DNA from: an uncultured Clostridia bacterium
Lineage (GTDB): Bacteria; Bacillota; Clostridia; Christensenellales; Borkfalkiaceae
NCBI GenBank assembly: GCA_947630245.1
Contig: CANRGR010000001.1
Coordinates: forward strand, 11,175-75,174
Reading direction: 5' to 3'
DNA: 64,000 bases
Shown: positions 240 to 49,620 of the stretch, piece by piece
Layout of the letters: each line of letters starts with the position of its first letter
How positions within the stretch are numbered: position 1 is the first letter of the stretch
Program-made: the position numbers and the translations under genes
Notes under the pieces: generated by a model
Told to the model about the DNA's origin: nothing
Database searches by the model: none
The model's input: only the letters and a program-made list of their open reading frames with translations

Positions 240-668
240 CTATCTGCCCGTGGATCCGAATCCGCCCGCGCCGCGGACGGTCTCGGGAAGGGTCTCCGCC
301 TCGGTAAATTCCGCCGTGTAATAGGGTGCGATCACGAGTTGGGCGATGCGCTCGCCGTCCGAGACCGTTTGGACGCAGCTCCCGTGGTTGTGCAGCGAGA
401 CAATCACCTCGCCGCGGTAATCGCAGTCGATCACCCCCACCTTGTTGGCGGGGGCAAGGTCGCGCTTGCTCGCAAGCCCGCTCCGCGCATAGATGAGCCC
501 GACCGTTCCCTCGGGCAATTCGAGCGCGATCCCCGTGTGCACAAAGACGGTCTGTCCCGCCCCGACGGTATACTCCCCGCAGGCGTACAGATCCGCGCCG
601 GCGGCAAATTCCGAGCCGTATGTGGGCAATTTCGCCCTGTCGCTGAGTTTTTTGACGTTGACTTTCAT
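240..668 (-). CDS. dut: dUTP diphosphatase (dUTPase)
   Basis: Internal Met of ORF 240..848. MKVNVKKLSDRAKLPTYGSEFAAGADLYA...ARSGLASK...GVIDCDYRGEV...RGAGGFGSTG are the classic trimeric dUTPase motifs. Start moved to the ATG at 668; the upstream extension is Arg-rich noise. Confidence 0.9.
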   Translation of the reverse strand: MKVNVKKLSDRAKLPTYGSEFAAGADLYACGEYTVGAGQTVFVHTGIALELPEGTVGLIYARSGLASKRDLAPANKVGVIDCDYRGEVIVSLHNHGSCVQTVSDGERIAQLVIAPYYTAEFTEAETLPETVRGAGGFGSTGR

Positions 669-842
669 CTGTTTCCCTCCGCGCGCCGCGCGTACGCCTC
701 TATGATACGAAAAACGAAGGAATTTGTCAAGAGGAAAACGGAAAATGGCGCGTCCGCGCCGCCGTCCCGTCCGTTTCCGCCGCCCGGATGCAAAATCTTC
801 CCTCTCCTCGATCGGTCGCGGGCAACAATCTTCCCATTTTGC

Positions 843-871
843 TTGCAAAATGCGCGGGAAAATGTTATAAT
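843..871 (+). promoter_or_regulatory. sigma-A type promoter for hybrid kinase 1
   Basis: TTGCAA (843-848), 17-nt spacer, TATAAT (866-871), about 75 nt upstream of the ATG at 948. Confidence 0.55.
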
Positions 872-947
872 CGACATATCATACGGACAAAACTTTTTCT
901 GCTCTGTCCGGCATGGAATCCTCTCGGTGCAAGGAGGAGAGATCCCG

Positions 948-3938
948 ATGAAAAAATGGCTCAACCGAATCATTCCGCCCGCCGTGACGCTTGTCGTCGT
1001 CGGCATTGTCGTCATGATCATCGTCGGTTATTTCCGCTTCATTTCCGTGCAGGTCCGCACGGACAGCGAACGGCATCTCAAAGAAGTCTACGGACAGGTC
1101 ACCCGCTCGTTCCAATCCTTTATCGACAGCAACTGGGGCTTTCTGGAAAGCTGTAAGGAATATTACGCCGCCGTCTCTTCGGACGAGAATCCCGACGATC
1201 CCGCGCAGATGAGACCGTTCATCGAAGCGCAGAAAAAGTATTGGAACTTCACCGAATTCTTCTTCCTCGATGAAAATAGAAATTACTATGCCTTCGGCGC
1301 GGATCAGCGGAGCGGGACGCCGCTTAAAAACGCGCCCGATTCCATGATCCACAACAAGGCTCCCATCATGATGGGCGAAGAGATCAACGGCACGGAAGTC
1401 ACCATGTTCGCCGTTGCGGCGGACGGGGTGTACAAGGGATTCCCGTTCAGCGCGGTCAGCGTCTCTTATACCAATTCCGATCTCGCCGCCTCGCTCGACG
1501 CGGACGCCTTCGAAGAGGACGGCGAATCGCTCGCGGAATGCTACGTCATCCGTCCCGACGGGAGCGTGCTCCTCTCCACCGAAAAGGGCGGGGGCTCCAT
1601 GCGGAACTATTTCGACTATCTCGACGGAATGCTCGACGGGATGGAAATCGCAAAGATCAAGGAAGATCTCAATCGGCTCGCGGAAGAAAAGAACGACGAC
1701 AAAAGAGAGAGCTACGGATATCTGCAATGCAAGATCATGGGCGAGGACCGCTGTCTCATCTATATGCCCATCGACTACGAGTATGCGGATTACTTCTTGC
1801 TCGGCGACGTTCCGCAGACCGCGGTGAGCCAGGGCTTCCTGCTCGCCCAGCGCGCCACGATGCGGGTACTGCTCATCATCTTCTCCCTCATCCTCGCGGC
1901 GCTTCTCATCATTCTCGCACTGCGCATCATCCGTCAATCCAAGCGCAGTAAAAAAGAATTGCAGTACCGGGAGCGGATGTTCGACGTCCTCTCCAACAAC
2001 GTCAACGATATCTTCCTCATGCTGGATCCGCAGACGCAGAAGGTGGACTATATCAGCCCGAACATCGAACGTCTCCTCGGCATCAGCGTCAAAGTCGCCC
2101 GCAGTAACATCCGCGCGATGGCGGCGTGCGCGGTCGATTACAACATCGTCGTCCCGGACGAGGAACTGCGCGCCATCCGCATCGGCGAGAACAAGAGCTG
2201 GGAATGCGAGTATATGCATCAGGCGACGGGCGAACGCAGATGGTACCGCGTCATGATCTATCACATGAGCATTCAGGGCATGGAGAAGTACGTCATCGTC
2301 ATGTCCGACCGCACGCTCGACAAACAGCTCAACCAGAAGTTGCAGGAGGCGCTCGACGCGGCAAAGAGCGCGAACGAGGCGAAGAGCAACTTCCTCTCGA
2401 ATATGTCGCACGACATCCGCACGCCGATGAACGCGATCGTCGGGTTCTCGGTGCTCCTCGAACGGAACGCTTCGGAGCCCGAACTTGTGCGCGAATATAC
2501 GCGCAAGATCATGGCGTCGAGCCATCATCTGCTCTCCCTCATCAACGACGTGCTCGACATGAGCAAGATCGAGAGCGGCAAGACTTCCCTCAATCTGGAA
2601 CGGTTCAGTCTGCCCGACCTGCTCGAAGAGATCAACATCATCATCACGCCGCAAGCGAAGGCAAAGGCGCAGGAATTTTGCATCCACACGCAGGGAATGC
2701 CGCCCAACGACCTCATGGGAGACCGTCTGCGCCTCAACCAGATTCTCTTCAACCTGCTCTCCAATGCCGTCAAATATACGCCCACGGAAGGCAAAATCGA
2801 CTTTACCGTGCAGGAACTGCCCGAACCGTCGCCGCAGTTCACAAAGCTACGCTTCATTGTCAAGGACACCGGCATCGGCATGAGCGAAGAGTTCATCCAA
2901 GAGATCTTCCAGCCGTTCAGCCGCGAGAAAAATTCCGTCGTCAACAAAATTCAGGGCACGGGGCTCGGAATGGCGATCACAAAGAGCCTCGTCGATCTGA
3001 TGGGCGGCATCATCCGCGTGGAGAGCGCGCCCGGGAAGGGAAGCACGTTTACGGTGGAACTCTCCTTCTCCCGCGTCGAAGAGGAGACGCAGGACGCATG
3101 GTTCCGCCAGAAGATCACGCGCATGCTCGTCGCGGACGACGAGGAGGAAATCTGCCTGAATATCCGCGAAATGATGCACGACACGGGCGTGGATGTCGGC
3201 TATGTGACGGACGGTCGCGCCGCCGTGGACGCCGCGGTCCATGCGCACGAACGTCATTCCGATTTCGACGTCATCCTGCTCGACTGGAAGATGCCCCAAA
3301 TGGACGGCGTGGAGACGGCGCGGGCGATCCGCGAAAAGATCGGCTCGGACGTCCCCATCCTCGTGCTTACGTCCTACGATTGGAGCGATATCGAGGCGGA
3401 GGCACGGCAGGCGGGAATCAACGCCTTTATGCCGAAGCCCTTCTTCACGTCCACCTTCTTCCAGACGATCAAACCGCTCTTCTTCCCCACGGAGACGGAG
3501 CCGCAGTCCGCGCCGAGCGGCGTCATGGACGGAAAGCTCTTCCTCGTTGCGGAGGACAACGAGCTCAATGCGGAGATTCTCACCGAGATGCTGCTCATCG
3601 AGGGAGCAAAGTGCGAACTTGCGCAAAACGGCAAAGCCGCCCTCGAACTGTTCGAAAACTCGGAGCCCGGGCGGTACGATCTCATTCTGATGGACGTACA
3701 GATGCCCATCATGAACGGCTATGAGGCGACGCGGGCGATCCGCGCCCTGCCCCGCCCCGACGCAAAGAGCATTCCCATCGTCGCCATGACCGCGAACACC
3801 TTCGCCGAGGACGTGAAAAACGCGCTCGACGCGGGCATGAACGCCCATCTTGCAAAACCGATTGATATGGACGCCGTGAAAAAGACCGTTGCGCGGCTCC
3901 TTGAAAAACATGATTCTTCCGGAGGAGAGACCAAATGA
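948..3938 (+). CDS. hybrid sensor histidine kinase with two C-terminal receiver domains (HK1)
   Basis: ATG at 948 preceded by AAGGAGGAGA (931-940). Architecture: TM, about 280-aa extracytoplasmic region, TM, PAS-like segment, H-box [11 protein letters not shown], HATPase (GTGLGMAI), REC1 (ILLDWKMPQMDG), REC2 (LILMDVQMPIMNG). The ORF-track start at 144 is an upstream extension overlapping dut. Confidence 0.9.
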   Translation: MKKWLNRIIPPAVTLVVVGIVVMIIVGYFRFISVQVRTDSERHLKEVYGQVTRSFQSFIDSNWGFLESCKEYYAAVSSDENPDDPAQMRPFIEAQKKYWNFTEFFFLDENRNYYAFGADQRSGTPLKNAPDSMIHNKAPIMMGEEINGTEVTMFAVAADGVYKGFPFSAVSVSYTNSDLAASLDADAFEEDGESLAECYVIRPDGSVLLSTEKGGGSMRNYFDYLDGMLDGMEIAKIKEDLNRLAEEKNDDKRESYGYLQCKIMGEDRCLIYMPIDYEYADYFLLGDVPQTAVSQGFLLAQRATMRVLLIIFSLILAALLIILALRIIRQSKRSKKELQYRERMFDVLSNNVNDIFLMLDPQTQKVDYISPNIERLLGISVKVARSNIRAMAACAVDYNIVVPDEELRAIRIGENKSWECEYMHQATGERRWYRVMIYHMSIQGMEKYVIVMSDRTLDKQLNQKLQEALDAAKSANEAKSNFLSNMSHDIRTPMNAIVGFSVLLERNASEPELVREYTRKIMASSHHLLSLINDVLDMSKIESGKTSLNLERFSLPDLLEEINIIITPQAKAKAQEFCIHTQGMPPNDLMGDRLRLNQILFNLLSNAVKYTPTEGKIDFTVQELPEPSPQFTKLRFIVKDTGIGMSEEFIQEIFQPFSREKNSVVNKIQGTGLGMAITKSLVDLMGGIIRVESAPGKGSTFTVELSFSRVEEETQDAWFRQKITRMLVADDEEEICLNIREMMHDTGVDVGYVTDGRAAVDAAVHAHERHSDFDVILLDWKMPQMDGVETARAIREKIGSDVPILVLTSYDWSDIEAEARQAGINAFMPKPFFTSTFFQTIKPLFFPTETEPQSAPSGVMDGKLFLVAEDNELNAEILTEMLLIEGAKCELAQNGKAALELFENSEPGRYDLILMDVQMPIMNGYEATRAIRALPRPDAKSIPIVAMTANTFAEDVKNALDAGMNAHLAKPIDMDAVKKTVARLLEKHDSSGGETK

Positions 3939-6524: not shown

Positions 6525-7508
6525 TTATTGCAGAGCGACGCCCGCGGCGGTGGCAATGAGCGGGAAGTCGATTGCGTCTTTGGATTGATTTTCCCCGAAG
6601 AACTCGCTCATATCGGTGAGCGGGATGGGCAGCGTGCCGCGGAGCGTGTTCATGAGCGCCTCGTTGTGGGCGCCGCCGCCGCAGCAATGCAGATGTTCGA
6701 GAGAGCTCCCGCCGTTGAAACGGTAGAAGTTGATCGCTTTGAGCACTTCGAGCGCCATAGCGCCGTACACGGTGCGGCAGGCGTCGAGCTCGTTCGCGCC
6801 GTTGAAGTTGTTCTCGCGGTACGTCCCCGCCATGAAGGAATCGACGCCGAACTTCTCGGAGATGATCTCGTCGAGCGCATTGCAACCGTAGTCGATGACG
6901 CGCACGCCCTCGAAGAGAGTGCCGTCGTAGAGGAAGAGCTTCACGGCGTTGTGTCCGATGTCGAGAATGCCGTGATGATGCGGCGGAACGGACGCCTTGC
7001 GCAGAAGATTCACATAGGCGAACTCCTCGGGAATGATGGTTTTGAGTTTGAATCCCGCCTTGTGGAACATATTGATGTAATCTTCAATCACTTCTTTGCG
7101 GGCGGCCGTTGCGAGCACGTCGAACTCGGGCAGATGATCCTCTCCCGAGCGCACGGCGTTGAGGACGGCGCAGTCGAAGAAGTAATTGCTCTTGTCGTCC
7201 GTGATGAAATCGCGGAATCCGTAGGGCAGATTGAACATCAACTGCTCGCGGGTATTTGCCGCAACGAAGAATCTGCGGCAATAGCAGAGCGGCGCGGGCA
7301 AGATGAGCGCGGCGTTGCGCGTGGGCAATTTCTGCGTCTTGCGGATCTCTTTGAGGAAATCGGACATCGCCTCCAAAGATGTGATGACGCCGTTCTTCAC
7401 GAGATCGGCGGCGATCCGCACGGAAATGCCGCGCACGATCGAGCCCTTCTTCTGGACCGCGATGTGTACCGCATGATTCCCGATGTCGAAACCGATGCAA
7501 TGCTTCAT
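6525..7508 (-). CDS. pilM: PilM, actin-like type IV pilus assembly ATPase
   Basis: 327 aa. N-terminal IGFDIGNHAVHIA and a later GILDIGHNAVKL are phosphate-1/2-like motifs of the actin/HSP70 fold. Position directly after pilD. Confidence 0.8.
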   Translation of the reverse strand: MKHCIGFDIGNHAVHIAVQKKGSIVRGISVRIAADLVKNGVITSLEAMSDFLKEIRKTQKLPTRNAALILPAPLCYCRRFFVAANTREQLMFNLPYGFRDFITDDKSNYFFDCAVLNAVRSGEDHLPEFDVLATAARKEVIEDYINMFHKAGFKLKTIIPEEFAYVNLLRKASVPPHHHGILDIGHNAVKLFLYDGTLFEGVRVIDYGCNALDEIISEKFGVDSFMAGTYRENNFNGANELDACRTVYGAMALEVLKAINFYRFNGGSSLEHLHCCGGGAHNEALMNTLRGTLPIPLTDMSEFFGENQSKDAIDFPLIATAAGVALQ

Positions 7509-7523
7509 GAACGTTCTCCTTTT

Positions 7524-8306
7524 TTATAAAATGAGCGAAAGATACAAATCTATCAGGTCCTGCCCTACGAGGAGGGTGATCACCGTTGCAATCGCAATGG
7601 ACGGACCGAACGGAAACTCCTTTTTGTCCCCCTTCCGCATGGAGAAGGAACAGACGAGCCCGATGATACAGGCGAGCAGGAGCATCAGCAGTCCGCCCAC
7701 GGGACCCGTGAACAGCCCCAACATGGCAAACAGTTTGATGTCCCCTCCGCCGAGGGTCTCCTTTTTGAGGACCATGTCCATCAGCAGGGACAAGACCAAC
7801 GTGCCGCCGCCGTAGATCGCCGCGCCGAGCAACCCGTCCTGTACGCGGGAAGCCGCGCCCCCGTGGGGATACAACATCACCGCAAACAGCACCGCGCCGC
7901 TCACCGTGAGCCCGTCGGGAATCTCCATCGTGTCGTAGTCGATGAGCGAAACGGCAAGGAGCACAGAGAACAGAATGAGATATTCGAGCGTGACGAACGT
8001 GAATCCGAAACGCAGGAAGGTGGCAAGATACAGGAGCGCGCACAAAAGCTCGGTAAAGAGACATCTCGCGGGAATGGGCGCGCCGCAGTTCCGGCACTTG
8101 CCGCGCAGGAACAGGTAGCTGAAAATCGGAATGAGATCGAGCGCGCCGAGCGTTTTGCCGCAGACGGGACAATGACTCCTCCCTTTGAGCACGCTCTCCT
8201 TTGCGACATAGCGATCCGCCGCACAGTTGATGAAACTGCCGAGACAGGCGCCTAAGCAAAAGAGAACAATCGCAAGATAGAGCATGACCGCCGAAGGCAA
8301 TTCCAT
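7524..8306 (-). CDS. pilD: prepilin peptidase (A24 family)
   Basis: Start at the ATG at 8306 (MELPSAVM) with a GGAGGGAAG RBS. N-terminal Cys motif CPVCGKTL...CRNCGAPI, multiple TM segments, GGGDIKL catalytic-Asp region. Confidence 0.9.
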   Translation of the reverse strand: MELPSAVMLYLAIVLFCLGACLGSFINCAADRYVAKESVLKGRSHCPVCGKTLGALDLIPIFSYLFLRGKCRNCGAPIPARCLFTELLCALLYLATFLRFGFTFVTLEYLILFSVLLAVSLIDYDTMEIPDGLTVSGAVLFAVMLYPHGGAASRVQDGLLGAAIYGGGTLVLSLLMDMVLKKETLGGGDIKLFAMLGLFTGPVGGLLMLLLACIIGLVCSFSMRKGDKKEFPFGPSIAIATVITLLVGQDLIDLYLSLIL

Positions 8307-8329
8307 TGATATTCTTCCCTCCTGCGGGA

Positions 8330-8764
8330 TTTGCGCTTTCCCGTCATTCCGCCATTCTTTCCTGTCATTCCGAGGGCACGCAGTGCCCGCCCCGCCCGCA
8401 TTCTTTTTCACGAAGGGCGGCACGAGGAGCGCCAGCGACGAAGTAGTGAATCCCCTCGTTCAAAGCGAACTTCGTATTGGGGGATACACTCCTCCCTCGC
8501 TCCGCTCGGTCGTCGGTATGACAGCGGGGTGCGGACTGCGCTCTTCCTGTCATTCCCCTGTTCTTTCCTGTCATTCCGAACCCCCGAAGGGGGTGAGAGA
8601 ATCCCCTTGTTCAAAACGGACTTCGTATTAGGGGATACACTCGCTACGCTCGGTATGACAGCGGGGCGCGGACTGCGCTCTTCCCTGTCATTCCCCTGTT
8701 CTTTCCTGTCATTCCGAACCCCCGAAGGGGGTGAGAGAATCCCCTCGGTCGATGTTCTTCCCTG
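8330..8764. repeat. intergenic repeat array R1 (about three tandem composite units)
   Basis: Repeated modules: GTCATTCCGA-[hairpin core]-GAGAATCCCC (8364-8455, 8570-8606, 8708-8744), ...ACTTCGTATnnGGGGATACACTC, and GCTCGGT(CGTCGG)TATGACAGCGGGGnGCGGACTGCG. The same modules recur at five other loci. Confidence 0.9.
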
Positions 8765-9040
8765 TCATTCAAGAGAAAGGTCGTTCCATGCAGGATTCCC
8801 CTGCGCTATGAGCTTTACTTTATTGTTATGAGAAAGTTTTTTCACAACTTTCTCGCGTGTAATCGCGTCCTCAATTTGCGTGTACGATTCAAAATAAACC
8901 AACTTCTTTATTTGGTATCTCTTGGTGAACCCGTCGTTCACACCGTTTTTATGCTCGTAAACTCGGCGATTGAGATCGTTTGTGACTCCCGTGTACAACA
9001 CAGTATTGTGTTGGTTTGTCATAATGTAAACGTAATACAT
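8765..9040 (-). CDS. GIY-YIG nuclease family protein (UPF0213/COG2827-like)
   Basis: MYYVYIMTNQHNTVLYTGVTNDLNRRVYEHK... carries the GIY (YVYIM), YTG(V) and R-x3-EH motifs. Clearly more AT-rich than its flanks and embedded between repeat arrays. Confidence 0.85.
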   Translation of the reverse strand: MYYVYIMTNQHNTVLYTGVTNDLNRRVYEHKNGVNDGFTKRYQIKKLVYFESYTQIEDAITREKVVKKLSHNNKVKLIAQGNPAWNDLSLE

Positions 9041-9070
9041 TCAACGCCGTCTTTTTTCACGCCTGTTTGC

Positions 9071-9279
9071 GCCGTCATTCCTCTGTTCTTCCCTGTCATT
9101 CCCCTGTTCTTTCCTGTCATTCCGAACCCCCGAAGGGGGTGAGAGAATCCCCTTGTTCAAAGCGAACTTCGTATCAGGGGATACACTCCTCCCTCGCTCC
9201 GCTCGGTCGTCGGTATGACAGTGGTGTGCGGAACTCGCTCCGCTCGGTCGTCGGTATGACAGTGGTGCGCGGTATGACA
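9071..9279. repeat. intergenic repeat array R2
   Basis: Same modules as R1: GTCATTCC variants 9074-9120, full hairpin module 9113-9152, GGGGATACACTC, and three TATGACA units. Confidence 0.85.
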
Positions 9280-9418
9280 ATTTACGATGTGATAACAGCC
9301 GCAAGGGGGTGCGGGTGTTATGACATCGGGGGGCTTGCGCCCTCCAATGCAACTCTCCGATCCGCCGCATCCCTCATCCCTGTCCGGCGGATCAAAGAGT
9401 TTATGTTTTCAGAATTGA

Positions 9419-9889
9419 TTAGGATTTAGGAATATCCGTAACACTGGTTTCCGTCAAGAGCAATTTAACCGTGTAACCACCGTTGTCGGCTTTCTTTGCT
9501 TCACCCGCAGTCGTATAGGTTGCAGTACCGGTATAGCTCTTATCCGTCTTCGCGACACCAGTCGCAATCGGAGTGACTACCAGTTTCGTAAAATCACCGT
9601 TTGAGGAAATCGTTGCGTCAACCGTCCATGCTCTGACATTGTTTTCGGTACCTTGACCAGTAGGCGCTGCCCAAACTTCACCTGCAGCAGTTTTCTCACT
9701 GTTTTCAAGAAGATAAACAATAGCCGTGCTACGGGTAGTGCGGATATTAGCATCCTTAGTAGCATCCTCTGCCTTGCCAAGCGCACCCACAAAGAGCGGG
9801 ACTGCAATCGCAACAAGGACTGCGATGATCGCAACAACGATCAGGAGTTCGGCAAGGGTAAAGCCCTTGCGGTTCTTTCTTTTCAACAT
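9419..9889 (-). CDS. pilA: type IV major pilin (prepilin with class III signal)
   Basis: MLKRKNRKG|FTLAELLIVVAIIAVLVAIAVPLF has the canonical G/F cleavage site, Glu+5 and a hydrophobic alpha1-N. 156 aa, with GC visibly lower than the neighbours. Confidence 0.9.
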   Translation of the reverse strand: MLKRKNRKGFTLAELLIVVAIIAVLVAIAVPLFVGALGKAEDATKDANIRTTRSTAIVYLLENSEKTAAGEVWAAPTGQGTENNVRAWTVDATISSNGDFTKLVVTPIATGVAKTDKSYTGTATYTTAGEAKKADNGGYTVKLLLTETSVTDIPKS

Positions 9890-9974
9890 AGTTTCATTCT
9901 CCTTATAAAATCATGATTTTATTTCTACCGCCTACGGGATGAATAGGCGTTCGAAACCTTGTTTAATGGGGCCC

Positions 9975-10427
9975 CCCCTCGCTACGCTCGGTATGACGGC
10001 GGGGGCTCCCGCTTGGCGCCCCTCGCAGGGGAGCTCCGCCCGCAGGGCGGTGAGGGGTTTCTGAAACCCTTTCGGCTCACTCCGTTCGCCACTTCCCCTA
10101 TAAGGGGCAGCAAGGGTGCGGACTGCGTATCAGGGGATACACTCCTCCCTCGCTCCGCTCGGTCGTCGGTATGACAACGGGGTGCGGACTGCGCTTTCCT
10201 GTCATTCCGAACCCCCGAAGGGGGTGAGAGAATCCCCTTGTTCAAAGCGGACTTCGTATCAGGGGATACACTCGCTACGCTCGGTATGACAGTGGGGTGC
10301 GGACTTCGTATCAGGGGATACACTCCTCCCTCGCTTCGCTCGGTCGTCGGTATGACAGTGGGGCGCGGACTGCGTATCAGGGGATACACTCGGGCTCCGC
10401 CCTCGGTATGACAACGCGGGTGCGAGG
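9975..10427. repeat. intergenic repeat array R3
   Basis: Contains the about 110-bp module GGCTCCCGCTTGGCGCCCCTCGCAGGGGAGCTCCGCCCGCAGGGCGGTGAGGGGTTTCTGAAACCC...CCCCTATAAGGGGCAGCAAG (10005-10114), one GTCATTCCGA hairpin module (10198-10237) and four GGGGATACACTC/TATGACA units. Confidence 0.9.
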
Positions 10428-10428
10428 A

Positions 10429-11649
10429 TCAATAACTGCCGGCGATGCCCGTGGACATCGTGAAGATGGGAACGTAGATCGCGATGACGATGAATCCGAC
10501 GACAACGCCGAGAATGATCGTAATCATCGGCTCGATCAACGAGAGCGCCTTATCGGACGCGGCAATCGCCTCTTCCGAATAGAACAGCCCGATCGAACGG
10601 AGCGTATCCTCCAACATACCCGAGGATTCCCCTACCGTGATCATTTCGATGAGCATCGGCGGAAGATAGAGCGATTCCTTCAACGATTCCCCCAAACTCA
10701 TGCCGCTTTCGAGCTTGACGATCGACTCGTTCAGCTCTTTGCCGACGCAACGGGTATCGAGGACGCGGCTCACGATATCGAGCGCGCGCGTGACGGGAAG
10801 TCCCGCCGCGAGCAGCGTTGCAAGCGTATTCGCCGTCTGCGCCGCCGCGTTGAAGCGCGTAATCTTGCCGAGAACGGGCATTCTGATGCGGATTTTCGAA
10901 TATACCATTCTGCCCCGCTCGGTTCTTCCGAAGAGGAACAGCCCGAGAATGAGCGCCGCAAGCCCGATGAGGACGAGATACCACCAATTCTTGAAGAATG
11001 TGGAGATTGCAATGAGAATGCGGGTAACGAGCGGGAGCTCGGTTCCGATTCCCTGCAACGTCTCCGTCATTCTCGGCACAAGCACGACCATGACGATGCC
11101 GATGACGACGATCGCCAACAGCAGGACGATTGTGGGATAAGTGAGGGCGGATTTGACCTTTTTCTGCGTTTTATGCGCGCGGGAATAGTATGCTTCGAGG
11201 CTCTTGAACGATTCTTCCAATGTACCGGATTCCTCGCCCGCCGCCACGGTCTCAATAAACACCGCGGGGACTTTTTTGCCGTTCTTGCGGAGACTGCCCG
11301 CCAACGAATAGCCCGCGGCGACGTCTCCCGCGCAAGCGCGCAGAATGCGGCGCATGAGTTTATCGTCGCTCTGGTCGGCGATGAGCTCGATCGTGCGCGT
11401 CATGGTGAGCCCCGCTTTGAGCATGATGGCAAACTGGTTTGCCGTGAGCGAAAGCGTTTTATTGCTGACCCAAAGCGGCTCGTTGATGTCGATATTGACC
11501 CGCCGTTCTTTGCGGACGGGTTTGATGGAATCGACAATCGCGTACGTTTTGCGGATTTCGTTCACCGCTTCGAACTCGTCGTACGCCTCGATTACGCCGT
11601 TCACCGTGGTTCCGTCTTTCGCGATCGCACGGTATTTATACGTCTGCAT
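10429..11649 (-). CDS. pilC: type IV pilus platform protein PilC (T2SS-F family)
   Basis: 406 aa with duplicated T2SSF-type halves and three TM regions. Lies between pilT and pilA. Confidence 0.9.
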   Translation of the reverse strand: MQTYKYRAIAKDGTTVNGVIEAYDEFEAVNEIRKTYAIVDSIKPVRKERRVNIDINEPLWVSNKTLSLTANQFAIMLKAGLTMTRTIELIADQSDDKLMRRILRACAGDVAAGYSLAGSLRKNGKKVPAVFIETVAAGEESGTLEESFKSLEAYYSRAHKTQKKVKSALTYPTIVLLLAIVVIGIVMVVLVPRMTETLQGIGTELPLVTRILIAISTFFKNWWYLVLIGLAALILGLFLFGRTERGRMVYSKIRIRMPVLGKITRFNAAAQTANTLATLLAAGLPVTRALDIVSRVLDTRCVGKELNESIVKLESGMSLGESLKESLYLPPMLIEMITVGESSGMLEDTLRSIGLFYSEEAIAASDKALSLIEPMITIILGVVVGFIVIAIYVPIFTMSTGIAGSY

Positions 11650-11686
11650 ATACCCTCCTTTTCGTTATTTTTTCGAATTTTGTTCG

Positions 11687-12736
11687 TCAATATACGTTTT
11701 TCTTCACATATTCGGGATCGTGCGCGGCGGCTCTCGCCGTCTCCGCCGAAATCACCCGCTGACGGTACAGCGCGATGAGCGAATTGTCCATCGTCACCGA
11801 ACCCTCCGCCGCCGACGTCGCCATAGAGCTTGCGATTTGCGGCGTCTTGCCCTCGCGGATGAGATTGCGGATTGCGGGGGTTACCATCATGAGTTCGCAT
11901 GCCGCCACGCGCCCGCCGTTCTTCCGCGGCAACAACTGCTGCGACAGCACCGCCATGAGCGTTGTGGAAAGCTGCATACGGATTTGCTTCTGCCGCATTT
12001 CGGGGAACACGTCCACGACGCGGTCGATGGAGTCGGGCGCGGAATTGGTGTGCAGTGTGGCAAAGACAAGGTGTCCCGTCTCCGCCGCCGTCAACGCCGT
12101 CTCGATGGTGGACAGATCGCGCATTTCGCCGATGAGAATGACGTCGGGGTCCTCACGCAGGATCGCCCGCAGACCGGTTGCATAGCTCTCGGTGTCCGCG
12201 CCGATTTCGCGCTGGTTGATGACGCAGCGGTCGGGCTCGTAGATGTACTCGATAGGATCTTCGAGGGTGATGATGTGCCCGTTGAGAGTATGGTTGATGC
12301 GGTTGAGCATCGCCGCAAGCGTCGTCGATTTACCGGAACCCGTTTCACCCGTCACGAGCACGATTCCGCGGTTCAACGCGGGAAGCGACTGCACCATCGG
12401 CGGAAGCCCGAGAGAGTCGAGCTCGGGAATCTTATCCGAAAGGATACGGATCGCCGACGACACCGCGCCCTGCTGGCGGAACAAATTGATACGGCAACGG
12501 ATGTGCCCTTGAAACGTCAACGCAAGGTCGAGTTCGCCCATCTTCTCGATGGAGGCGTATTCCTCTCCCGCCATCTGGCGCGCGTAATATTCGCAATCGG
12601 CAGCCGTGAGCGGCGCGCCGAAATCCTGCAATTCGCCGTCTACCCGGATTCGGGGCGGAAGATTCCGCACAAGATGAATATCCGACGCGCGCATATCCCT
12701 CGCCTGTGCGATCATTCTGTTGAGTTCCATCGGCAT
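11687..12736 (-). CDS. pilT: PilT-type retraction ATPase
   Basis: 349 aa. SDIHL motif, Walker A GETGSGKST, Asp/His boxes (ITLEDPIE, GHLVFATLHT). No GspE N-terminal domain. Confidence 0.9.
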   Translation of the reverse strand: MPMELNRMIAQARDMRASDIHLVRNLPPRIRVDGELQDFGAPLTAADCEYYARQMAGEEYASIEKMGELDLALTFQGHIRCRINLFRQQGAVSSAIRILSDKIPELDSLGLPPMVQSLPALNRGIVLVTGETGSGKSTTLAAMLNRINHTLNGHIITLEDPIEYIYEPDRCVINQREIGADTESYATGLRAILREDPDVILIGEMRDLSTIETALTAAETGHLVFATLHTNSAPDSIDRVVDVFPEMRQKQIRMQLSTTLMAVLSQQLLPRKNGGRVAACELMMVTPAIRNLIREGKTPQIASSMATSAAEGSVTMDNSLIALYRQRVISAETARAAAHDPEYVKKNVY

Positions 12737-12775: not shown

Positions 12776-14470
12776 TCAGTCGATATTTGCATTGAAGAGG
12801 TTGATGACCTCTTCCGCCGACGTCACGCCCGCAAGAACCAGCCTGCGGCAGTCGTCGGAGAGGGGCGAAAACGTCCCCTGTTTTACATTTTCGGAAAGCT
12901 GCGTCGCATGACGTCCCTCGGCGATCGCGCGCTTGAAGTCCTTGTCGAGCAAGAGCACTTCGAACACCGCCGTCCGTCCGACGTATCCCGTATGATAGCA
13001 ATGCGGACAGCCCTTTCCGCGGTAAAATCTGATTCCCTCCGCCTTCGGGTCGCACCCGATCGCCTCCAACGTCTCGGGAGAGGGCGTGTACGCCTCCTTG
13101 CAGTGAGGGCAGATCCTCCGCACGAGCCGCTGCGAAATGATTCCGTTCAGCGCGTCCGCGATGAGATAGGGCGCAACGCCGATATCCACGAGACGGTCGA
13201 TTGCGGAGAGTGCGTCGTTCGTGTGCACCGTGGAGAGCACAAGGTGACCCGTGATTGCCGAACGGATCGCGATTTCCGCCGTTTCGCTGTCGCGGATTTC
13301 GCCGATCGCGATGATGTCGGGGTCCTGACGCAGGATGGCGCGAAGCCCGCCCGCGAACGTCATGTTCACTTTTTCGTTGATCTGAACCTGATTTACGCCG
13401 TCGATGTCGTACTCGACGGGGTTTTCCAGCGTGACAAGATTCACTTCATCGGTGTTGAGGGAGCGGATCATTGTGTACATCGTGGAAGATTTGCCCGAAC
13501 CCGTGGGACCGACGATCAGCACCATGCCGTGCGCCGAAGCGAGAAGTTTGTTGTATTTTTCGAGATTCTCCCCTTCGAGCCCGATCGCATGCGCGTCGAG
13601 CAGTTGCGCGGATTTATCCAACAGACGGATAACCACTTTCTCTCCGTACATTGCGGGAAGGGTTGACATACGAAGGTCGATATTGTGTCCCTTGACGAGC
13701 ACGTTCGCACGCCCGTCCTGCGGAAGGCGCGACTCGGTGATGTCCATGCCGCCCATGATCTTCAAACGGGAAATGACGGTGCGTTTCAGCTCATCGGGCA
13801 CGGTGAGAACGGTGCGCAGCTTGCCGTCGATTCTCATGCGGACGACAACTTCCTCCGCACGGGGCTCGATGTGGATATCGCTCGCCCGCTCGGCGGACGC
13901 GCGTTCGAGAATGGAATTGACGAGACGGACCGTCGGCGCGGACTGCTGCGACTCCTCGGTGACTTCCTCGCTTTGGGGGCGTGCGGCAGCCGTTTCGCGG
14001 GCGCCGGAATCCCGCATCTCTTCGATGGCGCGGGCAACGCCCTCGTTCCCGTAGAGGGTTGCAATCGCCTTGTTCACCGCCACCGTCGTGGCGATCTTCG
14101 GCAGGATCCGCTTCCGCGTCGCCGTACGGACTTCTTCGAGCGCAACGAAGTTGAGCGGGTCAGACATGGCAAGCGTGAGCTCGTCTTTGTTCAGCCGCAC
14201 GGGCACGACGCCGTGACGGCGCGCGATGCTCTTGGGCACGAGCGAGGCAAGCTCGATCGGAATGCGCACTTTGGAGAGATCAATAAAATCAATCCCGAGC
14301 TGCAATTCGAGCGTCTCGATGAGCAACTGTTCGTTGATGATGCCCTCTTCGATCAGGATTGTGCCGAGACGCTCATGCTTCGTCTTTTGAAGCGCAAGCG
14401 CCCTGTCAAGCTGTTCCTGCGTGATTGCACCGTTGTTGACGAGTATGTCGCCCAAACGGAAATATTCCAT
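12776..14470 (-). CDS. pilB: PilB/GspE-family pilus extension ATPase with an MshEN-like N-terminus
   Basis: 564 aa. Walker A GPTGSGKSS, tetracysteine CPHC...CPHC, GHLVLSTVHTN. N-terminal residues 5-57 hold two tandem RLG-x8-G...L-x3-L-x2-Q motifs. Confidence 0.9.
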   Translation of the reverse strand: MEYFRLGDILVNNGAITQEQLDRALALQKTKHERLGTILIEEGIINEQLLIETLELQLGIDFIDLSKVRIPIELASLVPKSIARRHGVVPVRLNKDELTLAMSDPLNFVALEEVRTATRKRILPKIATTVAVNKAIATLYGNEGVARAIEEMRDSGARETAAARPQSEEVTEESQQSAPTVRLVNSILERASAERASDIHIEPRAEEVVVRMRIDGKLRTVLTVPDELKRTVISRLKIMGGMDITESRLPQDGRANVLVKGHNIDLRMSTLPAMYGEKVVIRLLDKSAQLLDAHAIGLEGENLEKYNKLLASAHGMVLIVGPTGSGKSSTMYTMIRSLNTDEVNLVTLENPVEYDIDGVNQVQINEKVNMTFAGGLRAILRQDPDIIAIGEIRDSETAEIAIRSAITGHLVLSTVHTNDALSAIDRLVDIGVAPYLIADALNGIISQRLVRRICPHCKEAYTPSPETLEAIGCDPKAEGIRFYRGKGCPHCYHTGYVGRTAVFEVLLLDKDFKRAIAEGRHATQLSENVKQGTFSPLSDDCRRLVLAGVTSAEEVINLFNANID

Positions 14471-32540: not shown

Positions 32541-33115
32541 GTACGACAGCGGAGCGAACTGCGTATGAGGGGATACACTCGACTCCGCGCTTTGCGCTCC
32601 GCTCGGTATGACAACGGAGAGAGGGCGCGTGTCGGTATGACAGCGAAGGCTCTCACTTGGCGCCCCTCGGGGTCCCCGCAAAAAGACGTAGTATTTTTGC
32701 GGGGTGGTATAGGGGAGCTCCGCCCGTAGGGCGGTGAGGGGTTTCTGAAACCCTTTTGAAACCCTTTCGGCTCACTCCGTTCGCCACTCTCTCATGTGGG
32801 TAGAACCCCGCATTCGGTCACCGTTCGCGCGGCAAATGCGCTCACTCATGTCGCATTGCGCCAACAGTTATCAACTGTTGGCAGGATGCAATGCTCCACC
32901 CTTTCAGGGGCAGCAAGGGGGAGGGAGCAAAGAATTTCGTGAACATCTCTGCGCGGAGCAGGGTTCCCCTGCGGTAGCGCCCACAATTTGCGCGATACTT
33001 CGCGCTTGTTGTCCGATGAAACGAAGAAGAGGTTCGGCAAGTTAAGGCGCGAGAGCACTTTTCCTCGAACGATTCTTTTCGACGCAAGCGAAGCGAGCAA
33101 GCAAAGAATCGTTCG
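32541..33115. repeat. intergenic repeat array R4
   Basis: Holds GGGGATACACTC, TATGACA units, the 110-bp module interrupted by an extra hairpin module (32649-32790), and CCCACAATTTGCGCGATACTTCGCGCTTGTTGTCCGATGAAACGAAG...GTTAAGGCGCGAGAGCAC, which is shared with R5 and R6. Confidence 0.9.
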
Positions 33116-42620: not shown

Positions 42621-43338
42621 GAGTTCCTCCTCTTGGCGCCCCTCGGGGTCTCCGCAAAAAGACGTAGTATTTTTGTGGGGTGGTTGTTTTTCTTGTCATT
42701 CCGAGGGAGCCGTAGGCGACTGAGAGAATCCCCTTCTCCAAAGCGGACTTCGTATCGGGGGATACACTCGGGCTCCGCCCTCGGTATGACAGAAAAGGCT
42801 CTCGCTTGGCGCCCCTCGCAGGGGAGATGTCACGAGCTTGCGAGTGACAGAGGGGTTTCTGAAATCCTTTCCCTCTCACTCCGTTCGAGGACTTCCCCTA
42901 TAAGGGGCAGCAAGGCGCGGCGCGGGATTCTCCCGCGCCGCGCCATTTTCAAATCACGTCATGTTGAGCGCAGTCGAAACATCGCCTTGATTTTTTAAGA
43001 CCTTGCACCTTGGGCGGCAGGGACCGCCGCAAAGCGGTCGCGCCCGCCAGCGCTCCTGTCACGAGACGCTCACAGCGCACCGCGCTGTTGAGCAGAATGC
43101 CTCGCTCCACCTCGACAAGTTCAGAGTGACATAATCAGAACGCATTCTTGTTCTCCTCTGTCATTTCGAGGGAGCCGTAGGCGACTGAGAGAATCCCCTT
43201 CTCCAAAGCGGACTGCGTATCAGGGGATACACTCGCTCCGCTCGGTATGACAGCTAAAAATCTTATGCGCGTTGGAAAACCACGCTTTTCCATAAGCGCC
43301 CACAATTTGCCGCATACTTGCGGCTTGTTGTTTGCGCA
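42621..43338. repeat. intergenic repeat array R5
   Basis: Two GTCATT(C/T)CGA-GGGAGCCGTAGGCGACT-GAGAGAATCCCC modules (42695-42733 and about 43159-43198), GGGGATACACTC/TATGACA units, a 110-bp module variant (42797-42914), GTCATGTTGAGCGCAGTCGAAACATC, and the CCCACAATTTGCCGCATACTTGCGGCTTGTTGT module (about 43300-43335). Confidence 0.9.
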
Positions 43339-49030: not shown

Positions 49031-49620
49031 TCTTTTTGTCATTCCGAACCCCGAAGGGGGGGGGTGAATCCCTAAGTCACTGTTTTTCCTGTCATTCCGA
49101 ACCCCGAAGGGGTGCCCCGCCCGCATTCTTTTTCACGAAGGGCGGCACGAGCACGCAGTGCGAAGTAGTGAATCTCCTCATTCAATACGGACTGCGTATC
49201 GGGGGATACACTCGGGCTACGCCCTCGGTATGACAGCGAAGGCTCTCGCTTGGCGCCCCTCGGGGTCCCCGCAAAAAGACGTAGTATTTTTGTGGGGTGG
49301 TATAGGGGAGCTCCGCCCGCAGGGCGGTGAGGGGTTTCTGAAACCCTTTCGGCTCACTCCGTTCGCCACTTTCCCTTTCAGGGACAGCAAGCGTTCCCAC
49401 AAATTCCCCGCGAGCAGAACCACGCTTCTGCGTAGCGGGACACAATTTGCCGCATACCTGCGGCTTGTTGTCCGATGAAACGAACGAGAGGACAAACAAG
49501 TTAAGGCGCGGAAGCACGTTTCTTCACGGAAATTCTTTACGAAGCGCGGCGGCGCGCCGCTTGCGGCAAGCCGCAAGCGAGCAAAGAATTTCGTGAAAAA
49601 GCAAGGAATTTCGTGAAAAA
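49031..49620. repeat. intergenic repeat array R6
   Basis: Holds GTCATTCCGAACCCCGAAGGGG modules, the long-core variant shared with R1 (…CGCATTCTTTTTCACGAAGGGCGGCACGAG…GTAGTGAATC), GGGGATACACTC/TATGACA units, the interrupted 110-bp module (49241-49391), and the ACAATTTGCCGCATACCTGCGGCTTGTTGTCCGATGAAACGAA...GTTAAGGCGCGGAAGCAC module. Confidence 0.9.

Follow-up and report, generated by a model that had tools for sequence, protein, structure and literature searches.

Repeat arrays around a type IV pilin gene of an uncultured Clostridia bacterium are probably hairpin clusters of an Ssn-type nuclease

In a 64,000-nt stretch of DNA from an uncultured Clostridia bacterium (the window), three arrays of hairpin repeats bracket the major pilin gene pilA and a small GIY-YIG nuclease gene inside a type IV pilus operon with the order pilB-pilT-pilC-pilA-pilD, all on the minus strand. 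The locus raises the question of whether the arrays serve the expression of the operon or belong to the nuclease. The analysis favored the second answer: the arrays are probably Ssn-related hairpin-repeat clusters (NTS/SRM type, CGTC/TGTC-tagged REPs), and the embedded GIY-YIG gene, designated ssn, is probably their cognate nuclease, the whole forming a repeat-ssn-repeat cassette of the published kind. The host assembly (G000) consisted of 1.70 Mb in 99 contigs with 57% GC, and the gene content of the window was assigned by Pfam profiles. The core features were as follows.

8330-8764, array R1 (repeat search; RNA fold z -2.5)
8765-9040, minus strand, ssn, single-domain GIY-YIG protein of 91 aa (PF01541, E 1.2e-15)
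9071-9279, array R2 (half-heads and units; RNA fold z -6.7 with the adjoining unique part)
9419-9889, minus strand, pilA, major type IV pilin of 156 aa (N_methyl, E 3e-9; NCBIfam pilin models)
9975-10427, array R3 (repeat search; RNA fold z -4.8)

When all copies were sorted, the repeat units showed one plan: a (C/T)TGTC tag, an AT-initial stem, CGA or GA, an exchangeable core, GAG, the complementary arm, and AT-C. The closing stems in the host were ATTCC/GGAAT, ATTC/GAAT, ATAC/GTAT, and ATTTC/GAAAT, with a conserved GA...GA mismatch pair and a C right after the stem. All four subtypes could be read as (C/T)GTC-AT...AT-C, and a structure search for this form gave 226 matches in the genome vs 37-64 in simulated genomes. 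Simulated genomes served as controls for the pattern searches on such SRM-type tagged hairpins, control segments for the flanks, and shuffles for the folds. The complete units counted genome-wide were as follows.

Subtype I, ATTCC-GA-GCGNAGY-CGA-GGAAT, 58 complete units
Subtype II, ATTC...GAAT with a hairpin core, 59 complete units
Subtype III, ATAC...GTAT, 82 complete units
Subtype IV, ATTTC...GAAAT, 31 complete units

The initial annotation had placed repeat arrays between pilC and pilA and, around the GIY-YIG gene, between pilA and pilD, and all three were recovered there. R1 contained half-heads in tandem (TGTCATTCC, repeated every 21 nt), two plus-strand type II units (8570-8606 and 8708-8744), two minus-strand type III units (8481-8522 and 8632-8659), one long-core unit (8364-8455), and a head-to-head dimer at 8568-8661. 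In R2, a type II unit (9116-9152, plus) and a type III unit (9178-9219, minus) formed a dimer at 9114-9221, and a 41-nt tandem duplication was located at 9193-9272. R3 carried four type III units on the minus strand (10134-10175, 10263-10290, 10315-10356, and 10381-10412) and one type II unit on the plus strand (10201-10237), with a dimer at 10199-10292. The pilus locus thus held four type II units (plus), seven type III units (minus), and the tandem half-heads. The 12-nt head CTGTCATWCCGA occurred 16 times in the window vs 0.05 expected, a number reached in none of 100 shuffles. Eight direct-repeat families and no inverted families linked the three spacers, so that the arrays are co-oriented, as had been stated before. 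R3 also held a 110-nt module (10005-10114) of a second repeat family (GGGGCGCC...GGGGTTTCTGAAACCC...GGGGCAGCAAGGG); for this separate family, often fused beside type III heads, the initial annotation gave further sites in the window at 32649-32790, 42797-42914, and 49241-49391.

The arrays had been described as strings of short stem-loops. The quoted mini-hairpins were all present (CCCCCGAAGGGGG, GTATCAGGGGATAC, and, at 10038, CCGCCCGCAGGGCGG); however, the dominant structures were head-to-head dimers of about 95 nt, with a DNA fold of -23 kcal/mol (z -4.8). The operon-strand RNA of all three spacers folded more stably than shuffles, with the z values listed above. An Rfam search of 7000-12000 returned matches at chance level only, and a literature search by repeat sequence returned nothing relevant.

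The modules of the arrays recurred about 230-330 times at about 60 loci of the host genome, beside all kinds of genes; copy numbers are lower bounds, since contigs often end within repeats. Exact CTGTCATWCCGA heads numbered 194, in 63 clusters on 42 contigs, many of them at contig ends, and BLAST of the genome with the three arrays gave 106 intervals covering about 11 kb. Units paired head-to-head as 95-nt palindromes, and the palindromes were stacked into polar arrays. Gene positions were taken from a crude gene call of our own (1225 genes, 85% coding), which missed a second pilin paralogue; by this call, 306 of 335 relaxed heads (91%) were intergenic. The 48 unit-bearing spacers comprised 29 co-directional, 16 convergent, and 3 divergent ones, against 770/176/180 for all spacers. 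Placement after gene ends is the classic placement of REPs, and the REP-type nature proposed in the initial annotation was upheld; the hairpin repeats lay mainly downstream of genes throughout the genome. Each array had a uniform internal polarity, which agreed with the strand of the genes in 19 of the 24 co-directional spacers (p 0.007); the sense strand carried type III heads (38:8) and the antisense strand type II/I heads (41:5). The genes beside the largest arrays elsewhere had translations that looked housekeeping-like by eye, with no obvious bias toward surface proteins.

Analysis of the nuclease gene showed that PF01541 spans residues 1-74 of the 91-aa protein, in which no other domain was found, and that the nearest solved structures were the UPF0213 protein BH0048 and the UvrC N-terminal domain. 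The GC content of ssn was 40% vs 57% for the genome. On the two sides of ssn in the window, repeats begin at the stop codon, a TGA embedded in a GAATGACAG repeat head, and 31 nt ahead of the start codon. Alignment of 12 homologues showed that the catalytic-type residues Y5, Y16, R26, H30, E63, and N82 were invariant. A second GIY-YIG gene, on contig C50, was considered and set aside: it was of a high-GC, UPF0213-like housekeeping type and had no directly adjoining repeats, with the nearest array about 1.7 kb downstream.

Chenal et al. (2025, Nat Commun; PMC11893778) described Ssn as a single-domain GIY-YIG protein of about 94 aa (cd10448) whose gene is flanked by NTS/SRM repeats. The enzyme was shown to bind one strand of its repeats, in single-stranded form only, and to cut a few nt upstream of them; the tag is important for cleavage and the C following the palindrome for binding, and mutation of Y6, Y17, or E64 kills SsnA (PMC11893778). 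SsnA reduces the transformation of N. meningitidis with NTS-bearing DNA about five-fold, and clusters of NTS lie around surface-protein genes (PMC11893778). The host residues Y5, Y16, and E63 correspond to SsnA Y6, Y17, and E64, and the offset of one residue agrees with the difference in length (91 vs 94 aa). According to its domain, these residues, and the flanking repeats, the GIY-YIG gene probably belongs to the Ssn family of site-specific single-stranded DNA nucleases.

The association between gene and repeats was investigated in a genus sample of G000 and 100 further genomes (101 in total). Close ssn homologues were found in 27 of the 100, which together with G000 gave 28 loci in at least 18 genomic contexts. 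Nearly all 28 had repeats within 130 nt, mostly on both sides, and these repeats followed the same plan with species-specific stems (ATCCT/AGGAT, ATGTT/AACAT, ATGGT/ACCAT, ACCCT/AGGGT, ATTCT/AGAAT, ATTGC/GCAAT, and others). At least five matches to TCAYNNNGAGCGNAGYSGA were present in 26 of 28 ssn-positive genomes (median 31) vs 20 of 73 ssn-negative genomes (median 0), with a Fisher p of 1.8e-9; kinship among the genus genomes means that this p-value overstates the evidence. The reversed-pattern control gave 0 everywhere. Covariation of the closing stem was assessed with 12 species variants, each row being the commonest unit beside the ssn gene, picked by the authors. The 5-bp stem paired in 97% of cells vs 76% in shuffles, 17 cells were changed on both sides vs 4.8 expected (0/500 shuffles), and slid controls paired at 26-51%. 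This covariation suggests that the hairpin stem is maintained by selection.

The distant sample consisted of 80 Ssn homologues from many phyla, 49-63% identical to the host protein. Tagged hairpins were found on both sides in 53 of 75 such loci vs 4 of 63 control segments. Three homologues with 54-57% identity, L085, L090, and L097 (Ignavibacteriota, Omnitrophota, and Kapaibacterium), were flanked by TGTCATTCCCGCGAAAGCGGGAATCCAG, which is the exact Neisseria NTS consensus. The exact Neisseria motif is thus spread as far as these three groups.

The host system and the published Ssn systems with NTS/SRM repeats (PMC11893778) share a single-domain GIY-YIG protein of about 91-94 aa, a gene flanked on both sides by oriented hairpins with a (C/T)GTC tag, an AT-initial stem, and a following C, intergenic copies in the hundreds that cluster at some genes, and a gene whose presence predicts repeat abundance. 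The host system differs in that its units fail the published SRM pattern, behind its short closing stem come GA/GA mismatches and cores that are exchangeable and often long, one ssn gene is accompanied by four stem subtypes, and the units form polar head-to-head dimers; its host is a member of an uncultured gut Clostridia genus, in which the system is known here from sequence. Di Nocera et al. (2013; PMC3733652) described CGTC/TGTC-tagged REPs, which include Neisseria dRS3 and Rickettsia RPE-4/6, as having AT-initial stems, occurring mostly as head-to-head dimers, and being without a dedicated transposase. The host units agree with them in the CGTC/TGTC/CCTC tag, the AT-initial stem, the predominance of head-to-head dimers, the co-directional and convergent placement, and the lack of a known dedicated transposase. 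They differ in building long mosaic arrays and in size, the described stems being of 8-9 bp with loops of 4-5 nt and those of the host shorter with variable cores.

Several results weigh against assigning the arrays to an Ssn system. The published SRM pattern, HGTCWYN(0-2)YYVSBRHN(0-5)WNVSBRGN(0-2)RNCYNB, was not enriched in the host genome (21 matches vs 7-21 in ten simulated genomes) and had no match at any of the 28 genus ssn loci; on the distant loci it did work, with matches at 9 of 63 segments near the gene vs 1 of 63 distal ones. The closing stems are only 4-5 bp long before the GA/GA mismatches, with cores of 7 to about 70 nt, and so do not match the stem and loop sizes described for CGTC-tagged REPs. 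Single units folded no better than shuffles by nearest-neighbour energies (z about 0 to +1). Repeats were still held by the 20 ssn-negative genus genomes counted above, and the polarity along the gene direction fits an RNA-level role equally well. Because the SRM pattern is unenriched and the stems are short, the system is classed, as far as its sequence tells, as an Ssn/repeat pair of the published kind with divergent repeats, not as canonical NTS.

By analogy with the Neisseria and Wolbachia homologues (PMC11893778), binding by Ssn would be limited to the hairpin of one strand and to DNA in single-stranded form, as arises during the entry of transforming DNA, replication, or repair, and the nick would fall a few bases 5' of the tag. 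The cassette may have landed in permissive spacers beside pilA, outside the conserved leader and 3' hairpins of that gene, after which the repeats would have multiplied locally. The repeat-pilA-repeat layout would allow incoming pilA-bearing single strands to be cut on both sides, limiting or delimiting allele replacement, and any effect of the arrays on mRNA stability would be a by-product.

The best surviving alternative is that selection maintains the arrays as RNA elements of the pilus operon, namely REP-type 3' stabilisers or partial terminators that set the ratio of pilA mRNA to that of the machinery genes. This had been the proposal of the initial annotation, and it is now considered unlikely. 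It draws on the strong RNA structure of the spacers, on the placement of the family mostly downstream of genes with depletion between divergent genes, and on its polarity along the gene direction, which would fit transcribed elements; CGTC-tagged REPs elsewhere are placed alike and have been proposed to act as RNA (PMC3733652). However, transcription and replication direction could not be separated in the polarity data, which included one informative lagging-strand case only, and the same repeat family also flanks unrelated housekeeping genes. The remaining features of the operon were as follows.

12776-14470, minus strand, pilB (Pfam)
11687-12736, minus strand, pilT (Pfam)
10429-11649, minus strand, pilC, platform protein (Pfam T2SSF, E 1.6e-53)
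9929-9949, minus strand, pilA leader hairpin (loop UUCAUCCCG, covarying stem; array R3 on one side and the pilA start codon on the other)
9351-9401, minus strand, pilA 3' hairpin with 17-nt arms (loop GGGAUGAGGGAUG; inverted repeat I1 and fold)
9291-9324, minus strand, single-copy SRM-like tagged hairpin TGTC-ATAACA...TGTTAT-C (structural search; paired in the fold)
7524-8306, minus strand, pilD, prepilin peptidase (Pfam A24_N_bact and Peptidase_A24)

The longest pilD open reading frame extends into array R1, to 8423; the likely start is the ATG at 8306, which is preceded by a GGAGG ribosome-binding site.

A role as partial terminators found no support, as no site with a stem and U-tract was present on the operon strand within the arrays. 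Between 7400 and 11800 there were five terminator-like sites, all on the plus strand, a number equal to the shuffle expectation (5 vs 4.8).

The comparison with the pilus operons of relatives, which had been suggested as a check, was carried out with PilC orthologues of at least 71% identity, found in 16 of the 101 genus genomes, 15 of them with sequence downstream of pilC. The arrays proved not to be conserved: among the 15 operons, the pilC-pilA spacer was compact in G006, G066, and G061, contained other repeats in G103 and G060, and carried SRM-type arrays in at least 10. Both content and position of the arrays differed in G018 and others, G018 having different variant arrays and an additional one between pilT and pilC. 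G006 had 36 units elsewhere in its genome and a clean pilus operon.

The gene pilA has conserved hairpins of its own, which lie inside the arrays. The leader hairpin, about 50 nt upstream of the start codon, has the loop (A/U)UCAUCCC(G), preceded by GGUUUC and with AAAUAAA after it. All species examined had it, in at least 11 related operons and each time lying between arrays and gene, with stems that covaried from species to species (ACGCCUA, ACGUUGU, CGUUGC, CACUGC, and GACGG); it may serve pilA as a leader or regulatory element. The 3' hairpin is unique sequence outside the repeat family, and a 3' hairpin with the loop GGGAUGnGGGAUG followed pilA in 6 of 12 related operons. Its loop carries two GGGAUG repeats resembling the CsrA-type motif RUACARGGAUGU and shows complementarity to UCAUCCC of the leader loop, which suggests possible 5'-3' pairing or a common protein site. 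Because pilA keeps its own leader and 3' hairpins, any uncoupling from the machinery genes needs no arrays. A pilus-specific device for this purpose is also at odds with the roughly 60 loci in the genome and with the lack of conservation of the arrays; since they sit outside the conserved pilA core unit and vary freely, the case that they were selected for uncoupling is weak. An incidental effect of the arrays on RNA is possible.

A second alternative, considered quite improbable, is that recombination at the arrays generates pilin variation, with cassette exchange between pilA and a second pilin paralogue as for the RS repeats of Neisseria pilE/pilS. A second major-pilin paralogue indeed exists at C86:709-1146 (minus strand; 145 aa; 48% identity to PilA; leader similar) and is bracketed by repeats, with one array beginning 13 nt past its stop codon and a further one some 390 nt upstream of the gene; on C37, two minor-pilin genes likewise have a unit between them. 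PilA was 38-75% identical between species vs 72-92% for PilB, PilC, and PilT (full-length matches). Against such exchange, the two pilin genes were 72% identical in DNA over their 5' parts and had no mosaic tracts, fast divergence of pilins is general, and many non-pilin genes are also flanked by arrays. As the RS repeats of Haas and Meyer (1986) are presented in PMC11893778, the two cases are alike in that the same repeat superfamily brackets pilin genes of type IV pili, and differ in that no sign of silent cassettes or gene conversion was seen at the host loci.

That the repeats are miniature transposons (REPIN/MITE) moved by an HUH tyrosine (RAYT/IS200) or other transposase, with the GIY-YIG gene a bystander, is very improbable: the head-to-head dimers with terminal inverted heads do resemble REPINs and the genome has one Y1_Tnp gene, but the tag is GTC, not GTAG, and it is the GIY-YIG gene that the repeats flank and that predicts them (28 species and 75 distant loci). 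The only Y1_Tnp gene (C54:11105-11461, minus strand) was rejected as a mobiliser, being low-GC and IS200-like, with hairpins of its own and no GTCAT repeats adjoining, and unrelated to the repeat family. The REP/BIME systems with RAYT resemble the host system in their short palindromic units of alternating orientation, in mosaic arrays downstream of genes, and in one single-copy cognate nuclease gene per genome that is itself flanked by repeats. In the host the enzyme is a GIY-YIG and not an HUH tyrosine nuclease, the tag differs as stated, and the partner gene changes its locus between species (the 18 or more contexts within the genus).

The position of an Ssn-type cassette within a pilus operon raises the further point of whether Ssn nuclease/repeat elements are preferentially tied to type IV pilin loci, which is doubtful on the present evidence. 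Within the genus, 10 species have both ssn and the pilus operon, and in 5 of these the gene was part of the operon, four with the order pilA-ssn-pilD and one with pilC-ssn-pilA. The five operon-borne genes required four label changes on the Ssn tree, at least two of them forced by well-supported branches, and belong to at least 2-3 different Ssn lineages. The gene was present in 10 of 16 operon-bearing vs 18 of 85 other genus genomes (p 0.0016, subject to the same caveat on kinship). The SRM-type arrays in the pilC-pilA spacer of at least 10 of 15 species, and the units at the second pilin paralogue and the minor-pilin genes of the host, point in the same direction. ComEC and DprA were present in the host genome. 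Outside the genus, pilus genes were found near ssn at 0 of 18 class-level loci (flanks of about 3 kb per side) and 2 of 80 distant loci (about 1.5 kb per side), so a link between Ssn and pili was not general in the samples examined. In one Dehalococcoidia locus pilD lay beside ssn, and in L058, from an uncultured gammaproteobacterium, the order pilC-ssn-prepilin-pilD (248-3259) echoed the layout of the window in a distant phylum. SsnA restricts transformation in Neisseria; if the tie were real, the nuclease might therefore be co-expressed with the DNA-uptake pilus, either to police incoming single strands or to shield the pilin gene or promote its diversity. In any case, the recurrence of such elements beside pilin genes offers a testable lead to a possible cooperation of Ssn with DNA uptake by pili in bacteria other than Neisseria.

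Assignment of the arrays to a nuclease-linked repeat system would remove a tempting but unsupported account of pilus regulation. It would add an uncultured gut Clostridia genus to the known Ssn/SRM systems, with variants missed by the published pattern; pattern-based surveys therefore undercount Ssn systems. The gene-repeat link was also replicated independently within one genus.

Contigs of the host assembly frequently ended inside the repeats (C4, C12, C14, C22, C59, C65, C66, C69, and C84 among others), and the repeat family is therefore a main cause of its fragmentation. In another Clostridia genome, G267, two ssn copies with identical match scores (locus L144; C2:122722-122985 and 124382-124645) lay 1.6 kb apart; they could stem from a recent duplication or represent an active element.

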